A stretch of DNA of 64,000 nt from Chromatiales bacterium (GTDB lineage: Bacteria; Pseudomonadota; Gammaproteobacteria; Granulosicoccales; Granulosicoccaceae), in the NCBI GenBank assembly GCA_020631335.1, contig JAHDHK010000001.1, positions 7,836 through 71,835 on the forward strand. Direction: 5' to 3'. Shown in pieces: positions 6,275 through 24,341 of the stretch. Position 1 is the first letter of the stretch; every line of letters starts with the position of its first letter. Both the position numbers and the translations under genes were made by a program. The notes under the pieces were generated by a model. It ran no database searches and was not told the DNA's origin. It saw nothing but the letters and a program-made list of their open reading frames with translations.

Positions 6275-7434
6275 TGGTCTCGGTGATGCTGTGGAAAGAG
6301 ATCGTCGATAACCTGCGCGACCGCCAGACTGTTTTCTACGCGCTATTGTTCGGACCTGTTCTGTTACCTCTTTTAATCGGTGGTGCGCTGGTTGCCAGCC
6401 TCAAACAGGCAGCTGTGAGTTTTGACGAACCCTCCCCGATTGCTGTCAGCTACAGTGAACGCGCTCCTAATCTCATGAAATTTCTGCATTCAAATAATAT
6501 GGATGTAGAACCGGCACCGGCGGAGATTGAAGCCAGTGTTCGACGTGGTGATGTTCCGGTCGTACTGGAAATACCACAAGACTTTGCCACCGCATTGCGC
6601 AGTGGAACACCTGCGCCGCTGATCATTCATGTTAACGATGGCGACAAGCACTCAGCTAAAGAAGCACGCAAACTCAATACACTTCTGAACGCCTACGCGC
6701 AAACCATCAATGCGCTGCGGATGCAACATCGAGGTATTGATCCATCGGTATTCAATAGCGTCAACGTCACTTTGCAGGATGTGTCATCCAATGGATTCCG
6801 CGGACAATTGCTCGCCTCAATACTGCCGTTTCTATTGATTGTGGCGATGGTAATGGGCGGGTTTTATCTGGCCATCGACACTACTGCCGGAGAACGCGAG
6901 CGCCAGTCACTGGAACCACTGCTGAGTTTGCCGATGTCACGCTACAAGCTGGTACTGGGAAAATACCTCGCGGTACTCACTTTTGTCGGTCTGTCCAGCA
7001 TCCTGACTGCTATCAGCCTGTTTTTGGTTTTCCGATTCCTCTCACCGGAGGCAGCGGGCGGTGTAATAAGCTTTGATGGCCCGACAATCACCCGCGCCTG
7101 GCTACTGGCCAGTCCACTGGTATTTTTTATAGCCGCTGTACTGATGACAGTTGCCGCCAGCACCCAGAGCACGAAAGAAGCACAAACTTACCTTGGGTTG
7201 CTAATGGTGTTTCCGATGGCGCCGTTTTTTATTCTGCAATTTGTGAATATCAAGTCTGTTAACCTGACGATGGCACTGCCCATGTTGAGCCAGTACCAGC
7301 TGCTGGAGCGGGTGGTATTGCAGGACGATATCAGTTATATCCATATCGGGTTATCTATTGCAGGCACCTTGCTTTCCGCAGTGCTGCTCTATCTGGCAGC
7401 AGTCAAACTGTACTCACGTGAAAAAATACTTTAA
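6274..7434 (+). CDS. ABC-2 family permease (NatB-like)
   Basis: One N-terminal TM segment, a large extracytoplasmic loop, then a C-terminal bundle of hydrophobic helices. The start overlaps the stop of the ATPase gene (TAATG). Confidence 0.75.
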   Translation: MVSVMLWKEIVDNLRDRQTVFYALLFGPVLLPLLIGGALVASLKQAAVSFDEPSPIAVSYSERAPNLMKFLHSNNMDVEPAPAEIEASVRRGDVPVVLEIPQDFATALRSGTPAPLIIHVNDGDKHSAKEARKLNTLLNAYAQTINALRMQHRGIDPSVFNSVNVTLQDVSSNGFRGQLLASILPFLLIVAMVMGGFYLAIDTTAGERERQSLEPLLSLPMSRYKLVLGKYLAVLTFVGLSSILTAISLFLVFRFLSPEAAGGVISFDGPTITRAWLLASPLVFFIAAVLMTVAASTQSTKEAQTYLGLLMVFPMAPFFILQFVNIKSVNLTMALPMLSQYQLLERVVLQDDISYIHIGLSIAGTLLSAVLLYLAAVKLYSREKIL

Positions 7435-9819: not shown

Positions 9820-10482
9820 CTATTGAGCACTGCGACGAGTTACAGGCATCATCTTCAACATGGCACACGCAGCGCCGAACCCGTTGTCAATATTTACCGC
9901 GACCACCCCGGGTGAACAGGCAGACAGCGCACTCCCCAGAGCGACTTTACCGCCTTGCGCCACACCGTAGCCGTTAGAGGTTGGTACAGCGATGACCACG
10001 CCTTTTACCAGCCCTGCCAGCACGGGAAATAAAGCGCCCTCCATTCCGGCAACAGCAATTATCAGGGGTGCCGCATTCAGAAGTTCCAGCTTATCCGTCA
10101 GTCGCCACAGCCCAGCTACGCCGCAGTCCGCAATGATCGGCACATCAAGGCCGTTATAGAGCAACGTTTGGCGTGCCTCGTGCGCAACCTTCATATCAGA
10201 ACTGCCAGCAGTGACTATCAGACAATCAGATACAGCCAACGCAGGCAGTCCGTTATTCAACACAGCGGTTTCAGATGCATCGTGCGACTCCAGGTTCGTG
10301 AAATTCTCAGAACATTCACGCATTGCCGCCAGTGACAGCCGCGTTAACAGCAGTGAAGCCTGTCGTTGATTCGCCTGCGCCAGTATCGACTTGATCTGTT
10401 CGACCGTTTTGCCTTCGCACAACACTGCTTCAGCAACACCGGTGCGTTGCTGACGATGCCAGTCGAATTCAAACTCCTGCAC
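9820..10482 (-). CDS. larB: Nickel-pincer cofactor biosynthesis protein LarB (PurE-like NaAD carboxylase/hydrolase)
   Basis: PurE-like C-terminal region TAGSSDMKVAHEARQTLLYNGLDVPIIADCGVAGLWRL. Overlaps larE by 14 bp. Confidence 0.8.
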   Translation of the reverse strand: MQEFEFDWHRQQRTGVAEAVLCEGKTVEQIKSILAQANQRQASLLLTRLSLAAMRECSENFTNLESHDASETAVLNNGLPALAVSDCLIVTAGSSDMKVAHEARQTLLYNGLDVPIIADCGVAGLWRLTDKLELLNAAPLIIAVAGMEGALFPVLAGLVKGVVIAVPTSNGYGVAQGGKVALGSALSACSPGVVAVNIDNGFGAACAMLKMMPVTRRSAQ

Positions 10483-11320
10483 GAATGACAGCCTCCGGTT
10501 TTATAAAGGCACTGCCTTTTTTGTACTCTTCGAAACCGATGAATGTTTTGCCAGCAGCAACGCAAAGATCTTCAACCATCGACTGTGCGTGAAGACAGAA
10601 CTCTTTATCCGACAAAATGCGACTGTCCGTTGGAAGCTGTACAACCACTCCCCGCTTCATTATTCTGCAACGTATATCGCCGGGTGTGGTTAGTTGTGTG
10701 ATGAGTCTTTCTACCTGATGTATCAGCTGAAGGTCATTCGGGTTGATCGTAATTCCGGTTTCAACCCGACTTGAAAGGCAGGGTGCCGCCGGCAGTTGTG
10801 CCAGCGTACCCAGGTTTTCGTCGCTGGCGATCTGGCGGATGGTGTCCTTGTTTACCCCCGCTTCAACATAAGGTTGCCAAACCTGTTGCTCGGCAGCGGC
10901 TTTTAAACCGGGCCGGAAATCTCCCAGATCGTCTATATTGGTGCCGGTCGCAATGGTTCCGGTTCCGGCGACGTTTTTACAGGCGTTAATCGCAGTAAAA
11001 AGACTGCTCTTGCAGTAATAACAACGATTGTGCGGGTTGCTCACATATTGCTCACTTTCAAATTCAAGTGCGTTTATTTCCTGCAATTCCCACCCGAACT
11101 GCACCGCCAGTGAACGACACCTTTCGGTTGCTTCCACCGGTACCGCCGCTGACACCGCATGCATCGCAATGGTCGGGTGTACCCTGACCCGAGCGGCAAC
11201 CGTCATGAGTGTAAGACTGTCGATACCACCGCTTAACGCAATGTATAGCGTGCCTTCTTTACTTTGAAGCAAGCGGCGGAGTTTGTCGTCGCACTCAATC
11301 ATCGACGGCACTTTTTTCAA
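10469..11320 (-). CDS. larE: ATP-dependent sulfur transferase LarE (PP-loop ATPase)
   Basis: PP-loop ALSGGIDSLTL, NRCYYCKSSLF, and PCLSSRV (position of the sulfur-donating Cys). Overlaps larC by 26 bp. Confidence 0.85.
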   Translation of the reverse strand: MKKVPSMIECDDKLRRLLQSKEGTLYIALSGGIDSLTLMTVAARVRVHPTIAMHAVSAAVPVEATERCRSLAVQFGWELQEINALEFESEQYVSNPHNRCYYCKSSLFTAINACKNVAGTGTIATGTNIDDLGDFRPGLKAAAEQQVWQPYVEAGVNKDTIRQIASDENLGTLAQLPAAPCLSSRVETGITINPNDLQLIHQVERLITQLTTPGDIRCRIMKRGVVVQLPTDSRILSDKEFCLHAQSMVEDLCVAAGKTFIGFEEYKKGSAFIKPEAVIRAGV

Positions 11321-12476
11321 TGGTCAGGGCGAGCGCTCTTCGCGCCTGCAGTGTCTCTATTTCATTAAGACAGTCACGTTCAACTTTCGCGGTTAGTGTT
11401 CCCTGCGGTCGACAAGCTGTTTTTACCGGGTAACCATCGATCTCTTTGTGGTCCCGATGCAGGATTTTTCGCTGTAAATTCATATGACGCACGCCCAGTG
11501 TGGTTGTCTGCCGAAAGCACTGTTCAATCACAGCATCCATAGCATCGGGTGCTAACAATAAACGCAACCCGGTTGCCTGCCTGCCTTTCTTACCCTGCAT
11601 GACCACGGTGCTGATGTCGAGTACGCCAGACTCATCTCTAAGAATATCGATCGACTGTGCGATCTCTTCTGCGGTCATATCGTCTACTTCGAAGGCCAGA
11701 TGCGTAACCGGATCACTGCATACCATGTTGGTTTCCGGTTGTTCAAAAATGCAAACCCGAAATATGTTGGCACGATCGGCCAGTTGACGGGTACCACATC
11801 CAACACCAGTTTGAGCAAGCCTCGCGGCGCCGGTTTTCTGCTGAAGTTTATCGGGTTTTAGATAAGCCAGAATGGCAGCACCCGTCGGGGTGACGCGTTC
11901 ACCGGGTTGTCCATCGTCACTCCACTCGAACGACTCCAGTAATTGCACTGTGGCGGGTGCCGGCAACGGGATATCACCATGAGCTGTGGTGATCGTTCCT
12001 CCCCCCAGCGGCAACGGTCCGATACGCCATTGACGACAATCCAGGCGCGCGATGATACCCGCAGCGGCAAGAATGTCTACCATGGAATCCCAGTCTGACA
12101 CCTCATGAAAGTGCACGGTTTCAACAGGTTTGCCGTGTACTGCCGCCTCGGCTTTTGCCAGAAGACGATAAATATCTATGGCGACGTCAGTGATACCAGA
12201 ATCAAGAGATTTACCGTTGAGAAAGTCGATCACGGCCGGCAGCGTACGTGGCGGTTTCTCATCAGTTGATTGATTTACAGAGAAATGCTGTGCATACAGT
12301 CCTTTGGATGTTTGCTTTGACAGTATTGCGTCCAGCCCTTCGATGTTCAGTTGTGCAAGGTCTTTCAGGAAATCATCATAAAGCCACGGGCAGGCATCAA
12401 ACAGTGCTGCCGCAAACATATCACCGGCAACGCCTCCGAGCGCATGGCAGTCTATTCGAACAGGTATCATGCGCAA
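11295..12476 (-). CDS. larC: Nickel insertion protein LarC (DUF111, CTP-dependent cyclometallase), single unsplit ORF
   Basis: N-terminal DCHALGGVAGDMFAAALFDA motif. Length about 390 aa. Overlaps larA by 10 bp. Confidence 0.85.
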   Translation of the reverse strand: MRMIPVRIDCHALGGVAGDMFAAALFDACPWLYDDFLKDLAQLNIEGLDAILSKQTSKGLYAQHFSVNQSTDEKPPRTLPAVIDFLNGKSLDSGITDVAIDIYRLLAKAEAAVHGKPVETVHFHEVSDWDSMVDILAAAGIIARLDCRQWRIGPLPLGGGTITTAHGDIPLPAPATVQLLESFEWSDDGQPGERVTPTGAAILAYLKPDKLQQKTGAARLAQTGVGCGTRQLADRANIFRVCIFEQPETNMVCSDPVTHLAFEVDDMTAEEIAQSIDILRDESGVLDISTVVMQGKKGRQATGLRLLLAPDAMDAVIEQCFRQTTTLGVRHMNLQRKILHRDHKEIDGYPVKTACRPQGTLTAKVERDCLNEIETLQARRALALTIEKSAVDD

Positions 12477-13750
12477 AACGGCACCACGTAGGGGCCTTCG
12501 GGAATCACAGCCAGCTCCGAATCACCCTGCGCTGCCAGACTTTCCGCAATAGCCGCATCAAGGTCATTCACTGCCGCCACCCCGGTCGCTGCATGCAACG
12601 TACCTTCAAGCTGCGGTGCAAACAGTTTGATACGACCTACGCGCATGGGTTTGAGCTGCATCTCAGTTTGCCACTCATCGATATCGGCCAGTGATTTTTC
12701 AGTCAGTGTCTCTAGAAATGCATCGACACCCAAACTGACCAGTCTTTTTTGTGCCGCCAGAAACTCTTCGGAACCAAAGCCCTCGGAACATTCCGAGACG
12801 ATGATCAGATCACCACCCGGCTCAAGAATATCGAGCGGTGTGACCATCCCCTTAACCGTTTGATAGTAGGTTTTATCGAGCGGATAACCTGCCGAGCTTG
12901 TCAATACGGTTTTAAACTTCCGTCCGACTTTTACCTCACAACTCTGGCGTGCAAAAGCGACTGCCTGCATGTGACTTTCAACTATGTCACCAAACGAGAC
13001 GAACGCGAGATTTCTGTGTTCATCAATCACTGTGTTGAGGCCGAGCACAGGCCCCTGCAACATGTTAACAATTTCAAGTTGCGTTTCATGCAGCGGGTTA
13101 CCCTCAAGATTGCACGAGGTGGCAAACGGACTTTCCATAAACCTCGCACTGTGAAAGGTGCGAATCGTTTCGTGGTGCGCCACCCCCGGCGCGATCACTT
13201 TACGACCACCGGAATAACCTGCCATAAAGTGTGGCTCGACAAGTCCGGTGGCAATTTTGATATCCGCATTGACAAAGGTTTGGTTCAGCCCCACCGGCAC
13301 CCGGTGTTTTTGAGTCGTCCCCAGTGATACGCACTGCGCTTCATCCCGTGCATAGTGATTCTCGACGCTGACATGCTGTTGCACCCAGGGATCACCGATG
13401 AGTTCTTCGAGTTCATCGCCAAGGTTCGGTCGATGCAGTCCGGTGGCTACCAGCACGGTGATCCCGGACGCAGGCACTCCTGCCGCAAGCAACCGCTGAA
13501 TGAGCGGCTTCAGAAATAAATGATTCGGTACCGGGCGGGTGATGTCACAAATCAAAATACACGCGCTGGACGCATCTTTGGCCAGCGACGCGAGCGACTC
13601 ACTGCCTGCCGGGTTATCCAGTGCAGCCTGGATTTGTGACCCGGCGTCAGCAGATACGTCCATCTGCGGCTTTCGAATGACGGTAGGCCGGGCTGCTGCG
13701 GGCAAGGTGACGTCAAGCCCGTTGTGGCCATAGGCTAGTTGTATTTTCAT
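12467..13750 (-). CDS. larA: LarA-family nickel-pincer-dependent 2-hydroxyacid racemase/epimerase, substrate unknown
   Basis: 427 aa. GLVEPHFMAGYSGGRKVIAPGVAHHETI contains the His / tethering Lys / Ni-ligand His region of lactate racemase. First gene of the four-gene overlapping operon. Confidence 0.85.
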   Translation of the reverse strand: MKIQLAYGHNGLDVTLPAAARPTVIRKPQMDVSADAGSQIQAALDNPAGSESLASLAKDASSACILICDITRPVPNHLFLKPLIQRLLAAGVPASGITVLVATGLHRPNLGDELEELIGDPWVQQHVSVENHYARDEAQCVSLGTTQKHRVPVGLNQTFVNADIKIATGLVEPHFMAGYSGGRKVIAPGVAHHETIRTFHSARFMESPFATSCNLEGNPLHETQLEIVNMLQGPVLGLNTVIDEHRNLAFVSFGDIVESHMQAVAFARQSCEVKVGRKFKTVLTSSAGYPLDKTYYQTVKGMVTPLDILEPGGDLIIVSECSEGFGSEEFLAAQKRLVSLGVDAFLETLTEKSLADIDEWQTEMQLKPMRVGRIKLFAPQLEGTLHAATGVAAVNDLDAAIAESLAAQGDSELAVIPEGPYVVPFCA

Positions 13751-13946: not shown

Positions 13947-14756
13947 ATGAGCGCTATTTCCTCCGGCGACGCAAACTCTGCCAGCTCTGTCCCGCTGCAA
14001 CAGGTCACCGCAATAAAACACTGGAATGACCGGCTTTTTTCGTTTCGGGTTACCCGCCCCGACAGCCTGCGTTTTCGTTCGGGTGAATTCACCATGATCG
14101 GCCTGCCCGATGTGCAATCGGGTAAACCACTTCAGCGCGCCTATTCGATTGCCAGCCCGGCATGGGATGATGAGCTCGAGTTTTATTCGATAAAGGTACC
14201 GGACGGACCACTAACCTCACGGCTGAAAAACATTCGTGTAGGTGACAATCTGGTGGTGCAGAACAAACCCGTTGGCAGTCTGGTACTGGACGCACTGCTA
14301 CCTGGCAAGCGCCTTTATATGTTTGCCACTGGCACCGGCGTCGCCCCATTCGCTTCGATTGTCCGCGATCCGGAGCTCTACCAGCGCTTTGAGCAGATTA
14401 TCCTCACCCATACCTGCCGGCACATCGATGAGCTCGGTTTCAGTCAGGATTTAATGAAACACCTGCCGAACGATCCTTTGGTGGGCGAATATGTGGCGAA
14501 CGCAGTGCGCTACTATCCGTCGATCACACAGGAAGACTTCACGCCACGCGGACGGATAACTCATCTGCTGGAAAGCGGGCAGCTGTTCCGTGATCTGGCG
14601 ATAGAGCCTCTGTGTGCAGACACTGACCGGGTAATGATCTGCGGCTCGATGGGACTCAATAAAGATATGAAAGCGATCTGCATCGATCACGGCCTGGTAG
14701 AAGGGTCAAACAGCAGACCGGGCACTTTCGTTATGGAAAAAGCATTTGTCGGATGA
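13947..14756 (+). CDS. fpr: Ferredoxin--NADP+ reductase
   Basis: FAD motif RAYSIASP, NADP motif MFATGTGVAPF, C-terminal FVMEKAFVG. Confidence 0.9.
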   Translation: MSAISSGDANSASSVPLQQVTAIKHWNDRLFSFRVTRPDSLRFRSGEFTMIGLPDVQSGKPLQRAYSIASPAWDDELEFYSIKVPDGPLTSRLKNIRVGDNLVVQNKPVGSLVLDALLPGKRLYMFATGTGVAPFASIVRDPELYQRFEQIILTHTCRHIDELGFSQDLMKHLPNDPLVGEYVANAVRYYPSITQEDFTPRGRITHLLESGQLFRDLAIEPLCADTDRVMICGSMGLNKDMKAICIDHGLVEGSNSRPGTFVMEKAFVG

Positions 14757-14906
14757 TGCAGGGTTGCTCAGGAATATAAATCAGCATGCGAAGGCGCATG
14801 AGACAAAAATATTGAACCATCACCCGGATATCTGTTCCAATGACTTACCACTGGACATCGGGTCCAATGGCAATACTATTCTTGTAACACAGGAGTGCAA
14901 CAGCCT

Positions 14907-15305
14907 ATGAAACGACGTCAGTTTCTGGCCATGTCCGCGATCGCACCCTTTGCCGGCGTCGCGCTGGCAGAAGATGCGAAGCACGAGGACTACACCCGCG
15001 AGGCTTACGAGCAGGCTCTCGCGACTGGTGAGCCATTTTTGCTTGATTTTTCCGCTCCCTGGTGAGGGACCTGCCGAGCTCAAGAGCGCACCGTGAGTGC
15101 ACTAATAGACGGTAACCCTGCCTATAAGGCGGTAAAAGTAATAACAGTAGACTGGGACACTTTTAAAAGTGCTCCAATTGTAGAAGAGCTGGATATCCCG
15201 CGTCGCTCAACACTGGTGATGTTCAAAGATGGTGAGGAAGTCGGGCGGGTGGTTGCACAGACATCTGCCAAGGCGATCGAACCACTGTTTATCGCTGCGA
15301 CCTGA
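14907..15305 (+). CDS. Tat-signal thioredoxin-fold protein with an in-frame TGA at the first CxxC position (candidate selenoprotein; alternatively a nonsense pseudogene)
   Basis: ATG 14907 has AGGAG upstream. Signal MKRRQFLAMSAIAPFAGVALA. The sequence reads ...FLLDFSAPW-TGA(15063-15065)-GTCRAQ... in the same frame as track ORF 15093..15305. Cis-Pro context DIPRRSTLVMF. Confidence 0.55.
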
Positions 15306-16478: not shown

Positions 16479-17717
16479 TTGCCGATGAATACGGTGCACC
16501 CCGATTACCTGGTTACTCACGATGAGTGGAGTGACATTACACAATTATTCGCACTGCCGGAAATTAATTTCGACGCCCTGTATCGATACCGTTTAGCACG
16601 CATAAAACTTCAGTTGAACAAGGCTGATGCCGCCTGCTGTCTGATCGTCAACCCGGTATCACTGCGCTATGCCGTTGATTATCGAACCTACGGTTTATTT
16701 CAGTCGCACATTCCTACCACCTACCTGCTGATACCTCAGGATGGACCAGTGGTGTTGTACGCCGCATACGGCACGGCACCGGGTGTGGACAGAACAGAAA
16801 CGGGTCACGCACTATCGTTTTTCGATGGCGGGAAAAACCTGACCGAAGCTGCTAATGCACTGGCTGACGATCTGTTGCGATACCTGTCCGAGCTGGGTAC
16901 AGATAATCGCAAAGTTGCCATTGAATATGTTAACCCGTCAATAACCGCCGCACTTCAACAGGCAGGGCTTGAAGTGATCGATGGGGTTGCAATCACTGAA
17001 CAGGCGCGTCTTATAAAATCTGCAGAAGAAATCACCTGCATGAAGTGGGCAATCAAAGTTGCACAACACGGCATAGCACAGGTGCAAAAAGCAATCCGGC
17101 CCGGTGTGTCCGAGTTACAGCTCTGGGCACTACTTAACTACACCAACCTTGCGAACAACGGCGACTGGCACGAAGGCAGAATGCTCGCTTCAGGAACGCG
17201 AATAAACCCCTGGTTGCAGGAGGCCTCCGCGAGGAAGATAGCGTCGGGTGATCTGGTGGGTTTCGATACTGATATGGTAGGTCCGTTTGGCTACTTCGCC
17301 GATGTTTCCAGAACAATGCACTGCGGCCCGACACAACCGACACGAAGGCAACGGCAGTTATATCAGCTTGCGGTGACGGAAGTTCAACATAATATGGCAT
17401 TAGTGAAACCCGGCATCACTCTTAAGGAATTTCAAAAAGATGCGTGGCCGATTCCGCAGGAGTTTCAGCAAAACGCTTATACCTGCATATGCCATGCTGT
17501 GGGTATGTGTGATGAATACCCGAGGATCAACCCGATACACCGCGGCGAAACACCCTACAATGATACTATTCAGGCGGGCATGGTGTTATGCATTGAAAGC
17601 TATATCGGCGCGATTGGCGAGCGAGATGGCGTCAAACTGGAACAGCAGGTACTGGTGACCGACGATGGTTGCGAACTGCTCTCAACCTACCCGCTGGACG
17701 ATGCACTGATGCAGTAG
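16479..17717 (+). CDS. M24-family (creatinase/prolidase fold) metalloenzyme, DddP-like
   Basis: Pita-bread metal-ligand pattern: FDTDMVGPFGYFADVSR, HAVGMCDE, CIESY, KLEQQVLVTDDG. The track ORF starts at TTG 16479; ATG 16485 is the likelier start. Confidence 0.8.
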   Translation: MPMNTVHPDYLVTHDEWSDITQLFALPEINFDALYRYRLARIKLQLNKADAACCLIVNPVSLRYAVDYRTYGLFQSHIPTTYLLIPQDGPVVLYAAYGTAPGVDRTETGHALSFFDGGKNLTEAANALADDLLRYLSELGTDNRKVAIEYVNPSITAALQQAGLEVIDGVAITEQARLIKSAEEITCMKWAIKVAQHGIAQVQKAIRPGVSELQLWALLNYTNLANNGDWHEGRMLASGTRINPWLQEASARKIASGDLVGFDTDMVGPFGYFADVSRTMHCGPTQPTRRQRQLYQLAVTEVQHNMALVKPGITLKEFQKDAWPIPQEFQQNAYTCICHAVGMCDEYPRINPIHRGETPYNDTIQAGMVLCIESYIGAIGERDGVKLEQQVLVTDDGCELLSTYPLDDALMQ

Positions 17718-17761: not shown

Positions 17762-18283
17762 TTACGAATCGATAAACGGATCTATATTCCCGGATTCGTT
17801 AACACGAACTATATTCGCGGTGTTGATTTCATCGGGCGCTTCAAAAAAGCGTGTTATTGCATCAAACATTTCAACGGTATCTGTTGCCGCTCTTTGTGGA
17901 TGCTCAGCGGCACGCTGACGCAGACGCGCTTTACAAACCGTATCAGACACTTCGAAATAATACAGCCGGAAGCCCGCACCGGCGGATTGTGCAAGGTTGA
18001 TGAGCCACGCCCTTTGCGATTCTGTGTTAGCAGGAAAGTCCATCGCAATCGACGCACCACCAGACAACAGTTGCACAATCAGGTTTTCAATTGTCGACTT
18101 AAGCCGGCCTGATCGGCTCACATAGCCCGGTACATCGACAATTTCTGCCGGGTAAAGCTTACCCAGCATATCGTCTTCACTGAGTAACAACAGATTATTC
18201 CGCTGAGACAGATCACTGGCAAACGTCGACTTCCCTGCAGCCATCTTTCCACAAAACAGATATAACATTGCCCGATTTTCCAT
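17762..18283 (-). CDS. Small P-loop kinase/ATPase (AAA_33-like)
   Basis: Walker A LFCGKMAAGKST near the N-terminus. 173 aa. Confidence 0.6.
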   Translation of the reverse strand: MENRAMLYLFCGKMAAGKSTFASDLSQRNNLLLLSEDDMLGKLYPAEIVDVPGYVSRSGRLKSTIENLIVQLLSGGASIAMDFPANTESQRAWLINLAQSAGAGFRLYYFEVSDTVCKARLRQRAAEHPQRAATDTVEMFDAITRFFEAPDEINTANIVRVNESGNIDPFIDS

Positions 18284-20782: not shown

Positions 20783-21337
20783 CTAAACGTAACCACCGAC
20801 GCGGCACAGATACTTCCACACATACTCGGCAAAACTCCAGCGCACCTGGATATCAAAGGTATCCCCTTCGCGACAGGAAATGAGAATACTGGCATTGCCA
20901 AAACGGGTTTGCGCGCAATGACCGGGCTTGAACTCACGCGGATGGACATCAAACGGGGTCCCGCTCGCGATGACCGATCTGGCTTTAACCCCGCTGATTT
21001 GAATGACGGTGTAATAGTCACTGACATCGACAACCGCACTTTGTCCCGCTGGTAACTGTTCACGCAGACTGGCAACCAGAGTCTCTGCCGTCGGATCTTC
21101 GCTGTAGATAAGTCGCTCATCCGGCCCCAGCCAGTAAAGCGTATTGGCAGCAGCTGTTGTGCAGGTGTTGGCCTCCATCAACGCCGGCAGACCGGTCACA
21201 CTTTCTATTGCAGCTGACAGCGCAGGCATATCACCCCGGACGGTGACCTTTGCACAGATCGGCAGCTCTTTTATCGATAAGCCTTCAATCGAGTGCAGTT
21301 GAGCATTCAGTGGTGTTTCGATAGCCAGGTTATCCAC
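20783..21337 (-). CDS. soxG: Sarcosine oxidase gamma subunit
   Basis: 184 aa. Last gene of the soxBDAG order. Overlaps soxA by 8 bp. Confidence 0.8.
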   Translation of the reverse strand: MDNLAIETPLNAQLHSIEGLSIKELPICAKVTVRGDMPALSAAIESVTGLPALMEANTCTTAAANTLYWLGPDERLIYSEDPTAETLVASLREQLPAGQSAVVDVSDYYTVIQISGVKARSVIASGTPFDVHPREFKPGHCAQTRFGNASILISCREGDTFDIQVRWSFAEYVWKYLCRVGGYV

Positions 21338-24300
21338 GTACTCGTACCCCCTCTTTATCGATAAATACCGGATCGGTCACGATAGCGTCGACCACATCCC
21401 CGTTCATCAAGCGGATGGTGACTGTATCACCCTTGCGTTGTAAGCCGTTGTTCAACAGGGCAAGCGCAATCGAGCGTTCCGCGTTCGGGCTCATATAGCT
21501 CGACGTCACATGACCGAGTGTTTTCATTGGTGGCGCATCTTTCACCTCGGCCACAATGTGGGCCCCTTCGGGCAGCACCACTTGCGGGTCTTTGGTCAGC
21601 AACCCGACAAACTGCGGCCGCCCCTGCCTGTTGGTATCACTGCGCACAAACGAGCGCTTGCCGATGAAGTCCGGTTTGGTCTTTGAGACGATCCAGTCCA
21701 TATCCATATCGAGCGGTGTTACTGTGCCATCGGTGTCCTGTCCGACAATAATGAACCCTTTTTCCGCTCTGATTACATGCATGGTTTCTGTACCGTACAA
21801 ACAAAGACTATGCGCTTTACCCGCCTGCTGTAACGCCTGCCATAGTTGCCGACCGTAACGCGCCGGTACATTGATTTCGTAGGCGAGCTCACCGGTAAAA
21901 CTGATGCGAAAGACTCGAGCAGGTATACCCGCCACCTTACCTTCACGCATACTCATAAACGGGAACGCTTCGGCAGAGCAATCAATATCGGTGACCGATT
22001 GCAACAGCTCACGTGCACGGGGTCCGTTCAACGCTGCAACCGCCCATTGCTCAGTCACACTGGTGCAATACACCTGCATCTCAGGCCATTCGGTCTGCAG
22101 CCACTCTTCCAGCCAGCCGAGCACTCTGGCGGCACCACCGGTGGTGGTGGTCATATGGAAATGATCATCTGCCAGCCGTGTGGTCACACCATCGTCGAAG
22201 ATCATGCCGTGTTCATTTAGCATGAGTCCATAGCGACAACGCCCGACCCCGAGATTTTTCCAGTTATTGGTGTAAATCATTTCCAGAAACGCGGCAGCAT
22301 CCCTACCCTGTATGTCTATTTTGCCGAGCGTGGAAGCATCGAGCATCCCCACACTCTGGCGCACCGCCAGTGACTCACGCTGCACTGCCGCATGCATATC
22401 TTCGCCCGCTTTGGGGTAGTACCAGGGACGCTTCCAGTCACCCACGTCTTCGAACACCGCACCGCTTTGCACGTGGCAGCCATGCATCGGAGTATGGCGC
22501 TCCTGAATGAACAGCTCTCCTGATTCCTGTCCACCGATCGCACCAAACGTCAGCGGTGTGAAGGGAGGTCGAAATGTGGTTGTACCGACTTCAGGTATCT
22601 GTGCCCCTCTGATATCCGCCATAATCGCCAGCGCATTGAGGTTGGAGGTCTTACCCTGATCAGTTGCCATACCGGTAGTGGTATAGCGTTTAAGATGCTC
22701 GACACTGAGAAAGCCTTCTCTTGCAGCAAGATGTATATCTGCCGCAGTGACATCATTTTGAAAGTCGTGAAAGTGTTTGGCGGAGCCTTCGCCTACCGGA
22801 TGAACCGTGGGCACGAGCCACATCGCCTCAATACCGCCGAGCCCGTCTTCCTCTACAGCTGGCAATGCGCCCGGCGTTGACTGATAACCGCACGCTGCGG
22901 CTGCTGCAACACCAGCCTGAGAACCTTCCTGCAGACACTTGGCGGTGGAGAAGCTGCCATTACAGGCACCTGCAGAAACATTGGGGTTGATCGACTTGGC
23001 TTTGCTCATGTCGGGTACAAACCCGTGAATCGCATTGTCGTAGCGCAACTTGCCCCCGCTTTGACTGAACATGTGCGCTGATGGCGTCCAGCCGCCCGAA
23101 TTAGCGACGATCTGACATTTGATTTCCCAGGCCTGCCCGGCAACCGATTTACTGTCATCGGACAAAGGCATAATGCGGACAGAGCTGACCCCTTTGGCAC
23201 CTTGCACTGAAGTGATCGCATGGCCGGTAAACACTTTTATACCAGCATCTTCACAGGCTGAGGTTAGCCCTGCGTTCACACTTTTGCGGGTATCAACCAT
23301 CGTTACTTTTGCACCGTTTGCACTGGCGTTCAGAGCGGTGAGATAAGCACTGTCGTTGTTGGTAAAAACAGCAATGTCATTGCCCGGTAGGACACCGTAA
23401 CGATTGATGTAGGTATCCACGGCATTCGCCAGCATAACACCGGGTCGGTCGTTGTCCGCAAACACCAGTGGTCGCTCTATAGAACCGGCGGCAATGATTA
23501 CCTGCTTCGCTCTGATTTTCCAGAATCGCTGGCGGGGTTTGTCAGCACCACGCCCCGGACCGAGGTGATCGGTGATCTTTTCGACAGCAGTCAGGTAGTT
23601 GTAATCGAAGTAACCTGTTAACGTGGTTCGCGGCAGAAAGGTAACGTTATCGTTGTTGTGCAGCTGTGACACACTCTGCTCAAACCACTGTGTATACGCA
23701 TCGGACAAGGTTCGACCGGTGGTCGCACCACCGGGCACAGACTGTTCATCAACCAGCATCACACGGGCATCGGAGGTAGCTGCGGCAGCCGCGGCAGCCA
23801 GACCTGCCGGCCCCGCACCGATAACCAGCACGTCACAATGGGCGTAGGTAGAATGATAGACATCGGGATCAGGCTCTGTCGGACTGACTCCGAGACCGGC
23901 TGCTTTGCGAATAAACTTTTCATAAGTCATCCACATCGAAGCCGGCCACATAAAAGTTTTATAATAAAAGCCTGCCGGCAGGAATCGCGACAACGCTGAA
24001 TTGACAGCACCGACATCAAATTCAAGACTCGGCCAGCGATTCTGAGAAGTTGCTACAAGGCCATCGTATAGCTCGACGCTGGTAGCACGCGTGTTGGGTT
24101 CGGTATAGGCCCCCTCTTCCAGTTGCACCAGTGCATTGGGTTCTTCAGAGCCAGCCGCGATCAGTCCGCGCGGCCGATGATATTTAAAACTTCGCCCCAG
24201 CAGGCGCACACCGTTGGCGAGCAATGCTGACGCCAGTGTATCTCCTGCATAACCGGTGTAGGGTTTGCCATCAAAAGTAAAACGCAGTGGCTTGCTTCGA

Positions 24301-24341
24301 TCTATAAGGCCACCGCTATCCAGTCGTTGCGCTTGCGTCAT
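21330..24341 (-). CDS. soxA: Sarcosine oxidase alpha subunit
   Basis: 1003 aa. Dinucleotide fold VLVIGAGPAGLAAA. C-terminal GcvT-like folate-binding domain. Confidence 0.92.
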   Translation of the reverse strand: MTQAQRLDSGGLIDRSKPLRFTFDGKPYTGYAGDTLASALLANGVRLLGRSFKYHRPRGLIAAGSEEPNALVQLEEGAYTEPNTRATSVELYDGLVATSQNRWPSLEFDVGAVNSALSRFLPAGFYYKTFMWPASMWMTYEKFIRKAAGLGVSPTEPDPDVYHSTYAHCDVLVIGAGPAGLAAAAAAATSDARVMLVDEQSVPGGATTGRTLSDAYTQWFEQSVSQLHNNDNVTFLPRTTLTGYFDYNYLTAVEKITDHLGPGRGADKPRQRFWKIRAKQVIIAAGSIERPLVFADNDRPGVMLANAVDTYINRYGVLPGNDIAVFTNNDSAYLTALNASANGAKVTMVDTRKSVNAGLTSACEDAGIKVFTGHAITSVQGAKGVSSVRIMPLSDDSKSVAGQAWEIKCQIVANSGGWTPSAHMFSQSGGKLRYDNAIHGFVPDMSKAKSINPNVSAGACNGSFSTAKCLQEGSQAGVAAAAACGYQSTPGALPAVEEDGLGGIEAMWLVPTVHPVGEGSAKHFHDFQNDVTAADIHLAAREGFLSVEHLKRYTTTGMATDQGKTSNLNALAIMADIRGAQIPEVGTTTFRPPFTPLTFGAIGGQESGELFIQERHTPMHGCHVQSGAVFEDVGDWKRPWYYPKAGEDMHAAVQRESLAVRQSVGMLDASTLGKIDIQGRDAAAFLEMIYTNNWKNLGVGRCRYGLMLNEHGMIFDDGVTTRLADDHFHMTTTTGGAARVLGWLEEWLQTEWPEMQVYCTSVTEQWAVAALNGPRARELLQSVTDIDCSAEAFPFMSMREGKVAGIPARVFRISFTGELAYEINVPARYGRQLWQALQQAGKAHSLCLYGTETMHVIRAEKGFIIVGQDTDGTVTPLDMDMDWIVSKTKPDFIGKRSFVRSDTNRQGRPQFVGLLTKDPQVVLPEGAHIVAEVKDAPPMKTLGHVTSSYMSPNAERSIALALLNNGLQRKGDTVTIRLMNGDVVDAIVTDPVFIDKEGVRVRG

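Follow-up and report, generated by a model that had tools for sequence, protein, structure and literature searches.

A thioredoxin-like gene of Granulosicoccaceae with a conserved in-frame TGA, probably a selenocysteine codon

The DNA described here, a stretch of 64,000 nucleotides of contig JAHDHK010000001.1 from a Chromatiales bacterium of the family Granulosicoccaceae (hereafter the window), carries on its forward strand a gene for a small thioredoxin-like protein whose frame is broken once, by a TGA that is predicted to encode selenocysteine (Sec). It stands exactly where related proteins have the first cysteine of their redox motif, and is followed by a hairpin resembling a selenocysteine insertion sequence (SECIS) element.

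A single in-frame TGA in a conserved thioredoxin-like gene

From the translation of positions 14907-15305, it is clear that the gene forms one continuous frame of 132 sense codons, reading MKRRQFLAMSAIAPFAGVALAEDAKHEDYTREAYEQALATGEPFLLDFSAPW-[TGA]-GTCRAQERTVSALIDGNPAYKAVKVITVDWDTFKSAPIVEELDIPRRSTLVMFKDGEEVGRVVAQTSAKAIEPLFIAAT-stop (in the abridged form, MKRRQFLAMSAIAPFAGVALAEDAK...DFSAPW*GTCRAQERTVSAL...IAAT*), with the TGA at 15063-15065 as the sole internal stop. The original prediction, made from the letters of the window without database searches, had proposed just such a 132-codon frame with one internal TGA and with AGGAG upstream, and both are found in our reading of the locus. A mechanical list of open reading frames contains the gene as two parts, 14895-15065 and 15093-15305. 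Since TGA is the ordinary stop used most often in the window, ending 21 of 43 long frames, and terminates this very gene as well, the internal TGA is a case of local recoding and not of a reassigned genetic code. Scanning for promoters and terminators gave nothing exceeding the expectation from shuffled sequence.

Once the stop is replaced by Cys, the protein matches the Pfam Thioredoxin family (PF00085) with an E value of 2.3e-12 and a score of 47.3 bits against a cut-off of 23.5, which upholds the earlier assignment to the thioredoxin fold. Its score with the TrxA equivalog model TIGR01068 is 39.7 bits and does not reach the cut-off of 96.8, and the protein is therefore thioredoxin-like rather than a TrxA equivalog. 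No NCBIfam selenoprotein model (SaoT NF040730, GOS_C NF045500, HUIPC NF047660, TsoB NF045694 and others) reaches its cut-off either; the sole match among these dedicated models is to TsoB, with 23.7 bits versus 805, and is local to the thioredoxin motif. The closest solved structure is that of Trxlp (5ZF2/5ZPV), which the profile finds with an E value of 7e-22 over residues 22-129.

An AlphaFold model was made of P0005, the closest full-length Cys orthologue (56% identical). It has a predicted local distance difference test score (pLDDT) of 87 overall and of at least 95 from residue 27 onward, with the first 23 residues disordered, as would be expected of a signal peptide. The modelled topology is that of a thioredoxin (beta-alpha-beta-alpha-beta-alpha-beta-beta-alpha), with WCxxC at residues 54-58, where the second helix (56-71) begins, and its top matches in the PDB are thioredoxins, the best being 5ZF2 with a template modelling (TM) score of 0.87 and a root-mean-square deviation of 1.8 A. 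Judging from this model, the thioredoxin fold would span both halves of the gene, the UGA being straddled by strand 2 and the active-site helix. Taken separately, the halves match no Pfam domain, in agreement with the earlier remark that neither is a plausible protein alone.

One structural detail of the original prediction has to be corrected. The sequence DIPRRSTLVMF had been taken to contain the cis-Pro of the thioredoxin fold, but Pro76 of E. coli thioredoxin aligns with Ser101 of RR-S-TL and not with the Pro of IPRR, which several Sec orthologues lack (IRRRSTL, VRRQSTL). The conserved cis-Pro is thus replaced in the window protein by Ser101, whose conservation within the family is 90% or more. 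In thioredoxins the cis-Pro shapes the groove for the substrate; throughout the present family, the solved Trxlp included, a Ser stands there instead.

We have collected the relatives of this gene as DNA loci (L, with flanks of up to 6 kb per side) and as proteins (P). The protein search returned 94 homologue clusters, namely 66 with W-C-x-x-C, four full-length ones with W-W-x-x-C, and 24 short ones of 72-83 residues that contain the C-terminal half only. In the DNA behind the short and the W-W clusters, a 41-56-codon N-terminal piece is followed by an in-frame TGA after the Trp and then by the fragment, and the clusters divide accordingly into 28 of Sec type and 66 of Cys type. In the 66 Cys-type clusters, the column of the predicted Sec residue (U53) is the invariant first Cys of W-C-x-x-C, and more distant orthologues have a Cys codon (TGC or TGT) there. 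A metagenome scan, whose pattern demanded W-C, could return Cys forms only, and these were used as negative controls.

The genome scan for relatives used one genome per species (GTDB species representatives) and gave 22 close relatives (L007-L028; 57-77% identity), all of them Granulosicoccaceae or unclassified Gammaproteobacteria, including one bryozoan-associated 'Chromatiales' bacterium. In all 22, TGA occupies the same column and the frame has no other interruption. The TGA is also found at that column, again as the single in-frame stop, in L001-L006, in L171-173 and in a distant alphaproteobacterial lineage (L167-170); altogether, 25 distinct loci have intact orthologous frames with this one TGA. 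The original prediction had placed the TGA at the position of the nucleophilic Cys, and the alignment bears this out: the codon falls on the catalytic first Cys of the homologues, and is TGA rather than TGC in the close relatives and in the metagenome lineages.

Both sides of the TGA have evolved under purifying selection. The median ratio of nonsynonymous to synonymous substitution rates (dN/dS; Nei-Gojobori method, 25 orthologues) is 0.21 in the mature segment that precedes the TGA and 0.17 downstream of it, with a range of 0.17-0.28 over both sides, and therefore both halves are translated and under selection. In a neighbour-joining tree of the C-terminal domain, one large Sec clade has a Cys subclade nested within it (P0004-P0010), and a second Sec lineage (P0093/P0094) stands apart, so that Sec and Cys have replaced each other more than once.

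Tandem paralogues of the gene occur in one Granulosicoccaceae metagenome-assembled genome (L022:5403-5801 and L022:6001-6414; CALGNZ010000044.1). Both have W-TGA-x-T-C and the same hairpin core, despite considerable divergence of the two proteins.

A constrained hairpin downstream of the TGA

The hairpin that follows the TGA forms 6 of 7 pairs in the window, with 4 bp, a C.A mismatch and 2 bp, and its loop begins 26 nt past the last base of the UGA. The coordinates and the pairing agree with those of the original prediction, which had put the loop roughly 26 nt from the UGA. According to the bacterial SECIS model (PMC13188914), such an element has a loop of 3-9 nt, an upper stem of 4-16 bp, a minimum free energy of -7.5 kcal/mol or lower, a G as the first or second base of the loop (with G or U usually next), and 16-37 nt between the UGA and the loop. 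When these criteria are scored by hand, the window element falls within them: its loop is 5 nt long, the second loop base is a G with U after it, and the spacing is 26 nt. The segment from the UGA to 60 nt beyond it folds with -17.6 kcal/mol in the window and with -9.3 to -25.2 kcal/mol overall. A possible lower helix is also present in the minimum-energy fold of the window; 86% of its cells are paired across orthologues, with little covariation, and we regard it as tentative.

The conservation of this element at the nucleotide level is much stronger than the protein sequence requires. Across the 25 distinct orthologues, hardly any variation is seen in the bases 21-41 nt past the U of the UGA, GAGCGCACCGUGAGUGCACU. 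At the third positions of codons Q59-S64, which lie in this segment, the entropy is 0.24, 0.48, 0, 0, 0 and 0 bit, compared with 1.5-1.9 bit at invariant residues with fourfold or sixfold degenerate codons elsewhere in the protein (1.5-1.8 bit for G41, V81, T102, G109 and R114). Synonymous divergence (pS) is likewise only 0.30 in the 13 codons after the UGA, versus 0.64-0.77 elsewhere. The 13-mer GCACCGTGNGTGC occurs 34 times in 1.34 Mb of compared DNA, and 33 of these occurrences are within this gene family.

Variants from other loci preserve the hairpin with 7-8 perfect base pairs. In L022/24/26/28, GGCGCAC-CGUGC-GUGCGCU has the C.A mismatch repaired to C-G, and in L005, L171 and L172, AACGCAC-CGUGN-GUGCGUU has a G-C pair changed to A-U. 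In the distant alphaproteobacterial loci L167-170, an unrelated stem (CCAGGUC/GAUCGGG) carries the loop CGUGU. The Cys orthologues L087-L092 and L100, which come from metagenomes, are on the other hand without the hairpin: the corresponding residues Q-E-R-V-[I/L] are encoded there with free codon choice, and no conserved fold is found.

Selenocysteine and the other ways of reading the TGA

Taken together, these data make it very probable that the TGA at 15063-15065 is a selenocysteine codon in a small, probably exported thioredoxin-like protein, read with the help of a SECIS element. The original prediction of a candidate UxxC (U, Sec) thioredoxin-like selenoprotein is thus supported by the conserved TGA, by the Cys orthologues and by a hairpin constrained at synonymous sites.

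Several observations weigh against this reading, and those concerning the hairpin come first. The apical hairpin of the window has just -5.0 kcal/mol in isolation, and the fold of 15055-15130 as a single sequence is no better than that of shuffles (z = -0.39); on the single sequence, the hairpin is therefore not beyond chance, and its significance comes from the comparative data. Covariation within the clade is also thin, with four of eight apical pairs invariant and only one pair with a double change, because the stem hardly varies, and the argument for a SECIS element rests therefore on synonymous-site conservation and on the variants from outside the clade. Covariation of the hairpin is borne out in part, by a few compensatory changes and by conserved synonymous sites, while the formal within-clade signal is thin. 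The earlier verdict that the structure is weak holds for its modest thermodynamics, but not for its value as evidence, since it is evolutionarily very strongly constrained. Rfam at the gathering threshold finds two tRNAs and nothing else in the whole window, and has no match at E <= 10 in 15040-15150.

The searches for the Sec machinery, which covered the 64-kb window and the flanks of related loci, were also negative. Neither the window nor the flanks of 24 Sec-form loci yielded a tRNA-Sec with ARAGORN, and tblastn with approximate E. coli queries found no SelA or SelD match in the window and 50 selected loci. Scans of the window and of about 330 kb of related loci gave no second selenoprotein candidate and no other TGA-split redox gene apart from this family. 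As for export, the N terminus remains below the cut-offs of both models of the twin-arginine translocation (Tat) signal, with 15.1 bits versus 16.7 for TIGR01409 and 12.2 versus 22.7 for PF10518 (20.3 for the Cys orthologue P0007). Finally, a gene for CcdA, the membrane electron shuttle that adjoins the Sec gene in other lineages (see below), is found neither within the window nor in the flanks of the remaining Granulosicoccaceae loci.

The negative searches bear directly on the alternative that the UGA is read through without Sec, either by Cys insertion with a SelB-like factor and a tRNA-Cys(UCA) or by hairpin-stimulated suppression with near-cognate Trp or Cys tRNAs, which would give C or W at residue 53. 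We consider this quite improbable; it keeps a small probability because the searches for Sec genes reached only the window and the flanks. Some public gene calls do render the TGA as W (P0001, P0002 and P0009), but the DNA is TGA under translation table 11 and these translations are gene-caller artefacts. A Trp at a column that is the catalytic Cys in 66 of 66 Cys-type clusters would, moreover, kill the redox motif. Insertion of Cys would need only TGC or TGT and no constrained hairpin, as the orthologues show, whereas the element found here matches the SECIS model in its spacing and in its G-U loop.

It is highly improbable that the UGA terminates translation normally and that the halves are separate products, a 52-residue signal-peptide fragment and/or a 70-residue protein started from GTG 15093, or serve as a selenium-sensing attenuator. 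In many assemblies the gene calls consist of precisely these two pieces, and GTG or ATG starts are available near the beginning of the fragment; however, the start codon is conserved neither in position nor in type (V or M, at different residues), and the stretch between the UGA and the start of the fragment is conserved as in-frame coding sequence. The thioredoxin fold, in addition, covers both halves, and no Pfam domain is found in either alone.

The original prediction had offered as its own alternative a simple nonsense mutation from TGC or TGT to TGA that would have inactivated a Cys-type gene. The family does have Cys forms, from which TGA is one base change away. Against a pseudogene stand the same TGA in each of the 22 species representatives as well as in further lineages, where no extra stops or frameshifts have accumulated, a dN/dS of about 0.2 on both sides, a downstream hairpin held at synonymous sites, and two tandem paralogues in L022 that both retain the TGA and the hairpin; with the TGA conserved and both halves under selection, this explanation is practically excluded. 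A sequencing or assembly error, a general possibility for any single window and nothing more, is contradicted by dozens of independent assemblies, made in different projects and with different assemblers, in which the codon is identical; its probability is negligible.

With a Sec codon as the preferred reading, the product would be a small exported thiol/selenol-disulfide oxidoreductase of the thioredoxin fold, with Sec as the attacking residue of W-U-G-T-C. During translation, the hairpin at 15085-15103 would function as a SECIS element of the bacterial type: SelB, with guanosine triphosphate (GTP) and Sec-tRNA(Sec), may bind the G-U-containing apical loop and deliver Sec to the UGA, and the ribosome would continue to the true stop at 15303. 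The N-terminal signal peptide, with its pair of arginines, would then send the protein to the periplasm, probably folded beforehand, via the Tat pathway. In the periplasm, U53 and C56 may reduce disulfides, oxidised sulfur species, or sulfenic or selenenic species of substrates, with the selenolate as the attacking group, and the resulting selenenylsulfide could be re-reduced via CcdA in lineages with a linked ccdA gene.

From its N-terminal sequence, the protein is likely exported, and Tat is a plausible route. The window protein has K-R-R-Q-F-L-A, where the typical Tat motif is S/T-R-R-x-F-L-K with a hydrophobic region and an AxA site after it. Its two arginines (R3 and R4) have a conservation of at least 90% in Sec and Cys forms alike, both of which show next to no variation in the N-terminal M-[KN]-R-R-x-[FL]-L. 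Of the twin-arginine signal proposed originally, the conserved RR motif therefore stands, while the Tat models stay below their cut-offs. The accompanying remark that a Tat-exported selenoprotein would be unusual is contradicted by FdnG and FdoG of E. coli, which contain Sec-196 and have typical Tat signals (PMC10609526, PMC3636253).

Known systems, annotation and genomic neighbourhood

Both by profile and, for the orthologue model, by structure, the window protein belongs to the same family as Trxlp of Edwardsiella piscicida (ETAE_2186; 5ZF2/5ZPV; PMC6636751). Common to both are the motif W-C-x-x-C-[KR]-x-Q-E-R, in which the window protein has the predicted Sec for the first Cys, and a Ser for the cis-Pro (QQSTL in Trxlp); Trxlp differs in having Cys instead of Sec and no SECIS element. 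In the fish pathogen from which it comes, it has been described as a virulence effector translocated into the host (PMC6636751).

UxxC thioredoxin-like selenoproteins are well established in marine bacteria, as the original prediction had pointed out. The Global Ocean Sampling (GOS) selenoproteome contains 321 sequences of 'Trx-like 1' of the UxxC type, in addition to 'Trx-like 2/3' (PMC2398784, Table 2), and an inventory of prokaryotic selenoproteins lists thioredoxin and thiol:disulfide interchange entries (PMC13188914, PMC9312934). The window family shares with these groups the thioredoxin fold, Sec as the first residue of UxxC, a marine origin, many Cys homologues and a SECIS element within the coding sequence. 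Compared by description, however, these groups are broad COG/CDD bins, in which the Trxlp-type subfamily with an RR signal and Ser for cis-Pro is not singled out.

The Sec-containing thioredoxin of Treponema denticola is a canonical cytoplasmic protein, without a known signal peptide and with the cis-Pro. Unlike it, the window protein has a predicted export signal and a Ser at the cis-Pro position. The two have PF00085, the U-x-x-C motif and Sec as the attacking residue in common (WP_010956703.1, PMC13188914). The formate dehydrogenase-type proteins FdnG and FdoG resemble the proposed product in that Sec is inserted co-translationally in the cytoplasm, before twin-arginine export to the periplasmic side. 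They are, however, enzymes of about 110 kDa with molybdenum-bis(pyranopterin guanine dinucleotide) (Mo-bisPGD) and [4Fe-4S], and the insertion of these cofactors explains their use of Tat, whereas the window protein is a cofactor-less protein of 12 kDa with a sub-threshold Tat motif. The DsbD gamma domain, CcmG/DsbE and TlpA/ResA are also similar, being exported CxxC proteins of the thioredoxin fold, and in many lineages the present family has a DsbD_TM/CcdA neighbour. Profile similarity to the C-terminal domain of DsbD and to DsbE is weak, with NCBIfam scores far below the cut-offs; these CcdA/DsbD-dependent reductases have Cys and not Sec, and the window is without ccdA.

The gene is thus a new, unannotated and well supported addition to the known UxxC thioredoxin-like selenoproteins, and its Trxlp-type subfamily with an RR signal is fixed in Granulosicoccaceae. 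A more far-reaching proposal, which we advance tentatively and which may well prove too broad, is that of a distinct selenoprotein subfamily which has not been delineated before: a Sec-thioredoxin of Trxlp type, free of cofactors, exported by the twin-arginine route and with Ser for cis-Pro, forming a selenium-based periplasmic reducing pathway with CcdA, fixed across the marine and often host-associated Granulosicoccaceae, and having arisen or reverted more than once. The general picture of selenoprotein biology is unchanged, because no class is commoner in marine bacteria than UxxC selenoproteins of the thioredoxin fold.

A full-length sequence containing U is absent from all 94 clusters, and the protein is therefore apparently unannotated as a selenoprotein in the public collections searched. 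Public gene calls for the family are systematically wrong, with the TGA read as Trp or the gene split into calls of 41-56 and 70-83 residues without a Pfam domain; this is the case for proteins P0001, P0002, P0009, P0056, P0065 and P0071-P0092, and for loci L001-L006 and L167-L173. In dozens of publicly available genomes and metagenomes, one conserved selenoprotein would accordingly replace two 'hypothetical' fragments or a Trp mistranslation. At present neither the protein, as a selenoprotein, nor its SECIS element is covered by a model of NCBIfam or Rfam, and annotators would gain a clean Sec/Cys family together with a well-defined SECIS consensus (GCAC-CGUGN-GUGC, 26 nt past the UGA). Granulosicoccaceae are also implied to use selenium; nothing relevant on selenium use in Granulosicoccus or Granulosicoccaceae was found in the literature. 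Since its Cys homologue has been solved (5ZF2), the family offers a small and structurally tractable system in which to study the benefit of Sec to a disulfide reductase outside the cytoplasm and the possible use of Tat for a pre-folded selenoprotein.

The features of the locus and the linked genes discussed below are listed in Table 1.

Table 1. Positions of the predicted features of the Sec gene and of neighbouring genes. Coordinates are those of the window unless a related locus (L) is named.
Feature	Position	Strand	Remarks
LarB-LarE-LarC-LarA complete cluster	9820-13750	-	Nickel-pincer nucleotide cofactor synthesis and lactate-racemase-type enzyme
Fpr-like ferredoxin-NADP+ reductase, upstream neighbour	13947-14756	+	Pfam FAD_binding_6, NAD_binding_1
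AGGAG ribosome-binding site	14891-14895	+	11 nt 5' of ATG, read from sequence
Predicted thioredoxin-like selenoprotein precursor gene, 132 residues	14907-15305	+	ATG 14907, terminal stop TGA 15303-15305
Predicted signal peptide MKRRQFLAMSAIAPFAGVALA	14907-14969	+	K-R-R-Q-F-L twin-arginine-like motif 14910-14927; A-L-A cleavage-type site by eye
Predicted Sec codon, in-frame UGA (U53)	15063-15065	+	Residue 1 of U-G-T-C redox motif (15063-15074)
Possible lower SECIS helix	15072-15114	+	15072-15076 pairing with 15110-15114; encloses apical hairpin; tentative
Putative apical SECIS hairpin	15085-15103	+	Stem AGCGCAC/GUGCACU, one C.A mismatch, loop CGUGA at 15092-15096
Ser101 codon at canonical thioredoxin cis-Pro position	15207-15209	+	hhalign versus E. 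coli TrxA; hidden Markov model (HMM) alignment to TXNDC5
DsbD_TM/CcdA genes in related loci	L005:3309-4022; L024, L026, L028 ~6500-7230; L167:2045-2773; L171:3333-4046; L172:857-1570		

The Fpr-like gene lies directly beside the Sec gene in most Granulosicoccaceae loci, a case of conserved synteny; its product scores 132 bits with NF008178, below the cut-off. The Lar cluster adjoins this pair of genes on the opposite strand, and LarA is likewise syntenic in most Granulosicoccaceae loci. In other lineages, the sole constant neighbour is the DsbD_TM/CcdA gene, which is found directly upstream or downstream of both Sec forms (L005, L024, L026, L028 and L167-173) and Cys forms (L087 and L090-L100), in at least 13 Sec and Cys loci altogether. 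This arrangement suggests that ccdA and the thioredoxin-like gene constitute a two-gene extracytoplasmic (periplasmic) reducing module.

Three further genes of the window deserve mention. For the 173-residue P-loop kinase encoded at 17762-18283 on the reverse strand, an identity as L-seryl-tRNA(Sec) kinase (PSTK), an archaeal and eukaryotic enzyme, was considered and rejected, the score being 18 bits versus 290 and the similarity almost certainly that of generic P-loops. The gene at 16479-17717 on the forward strand encodes an M24-family protein whose best NCBIfam match is the dimethylsulfoniopropionate (DMSP) lyase DddP, with 289 bits versus a cut-off of 600; to judge by this match, the product in this marine bacterium is possibly a DMSP-cleaving enzyme, or else a related peptidase-like protein. 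At 21330-24341 on the reverse strand lies the gene for a 1003-residue protein of the sarcosine oxidase alpha-subunit family (TIGR01372, 1439 bits), which points to catabolism of methylated amines (glycine betaine/sarcosine) in this region.

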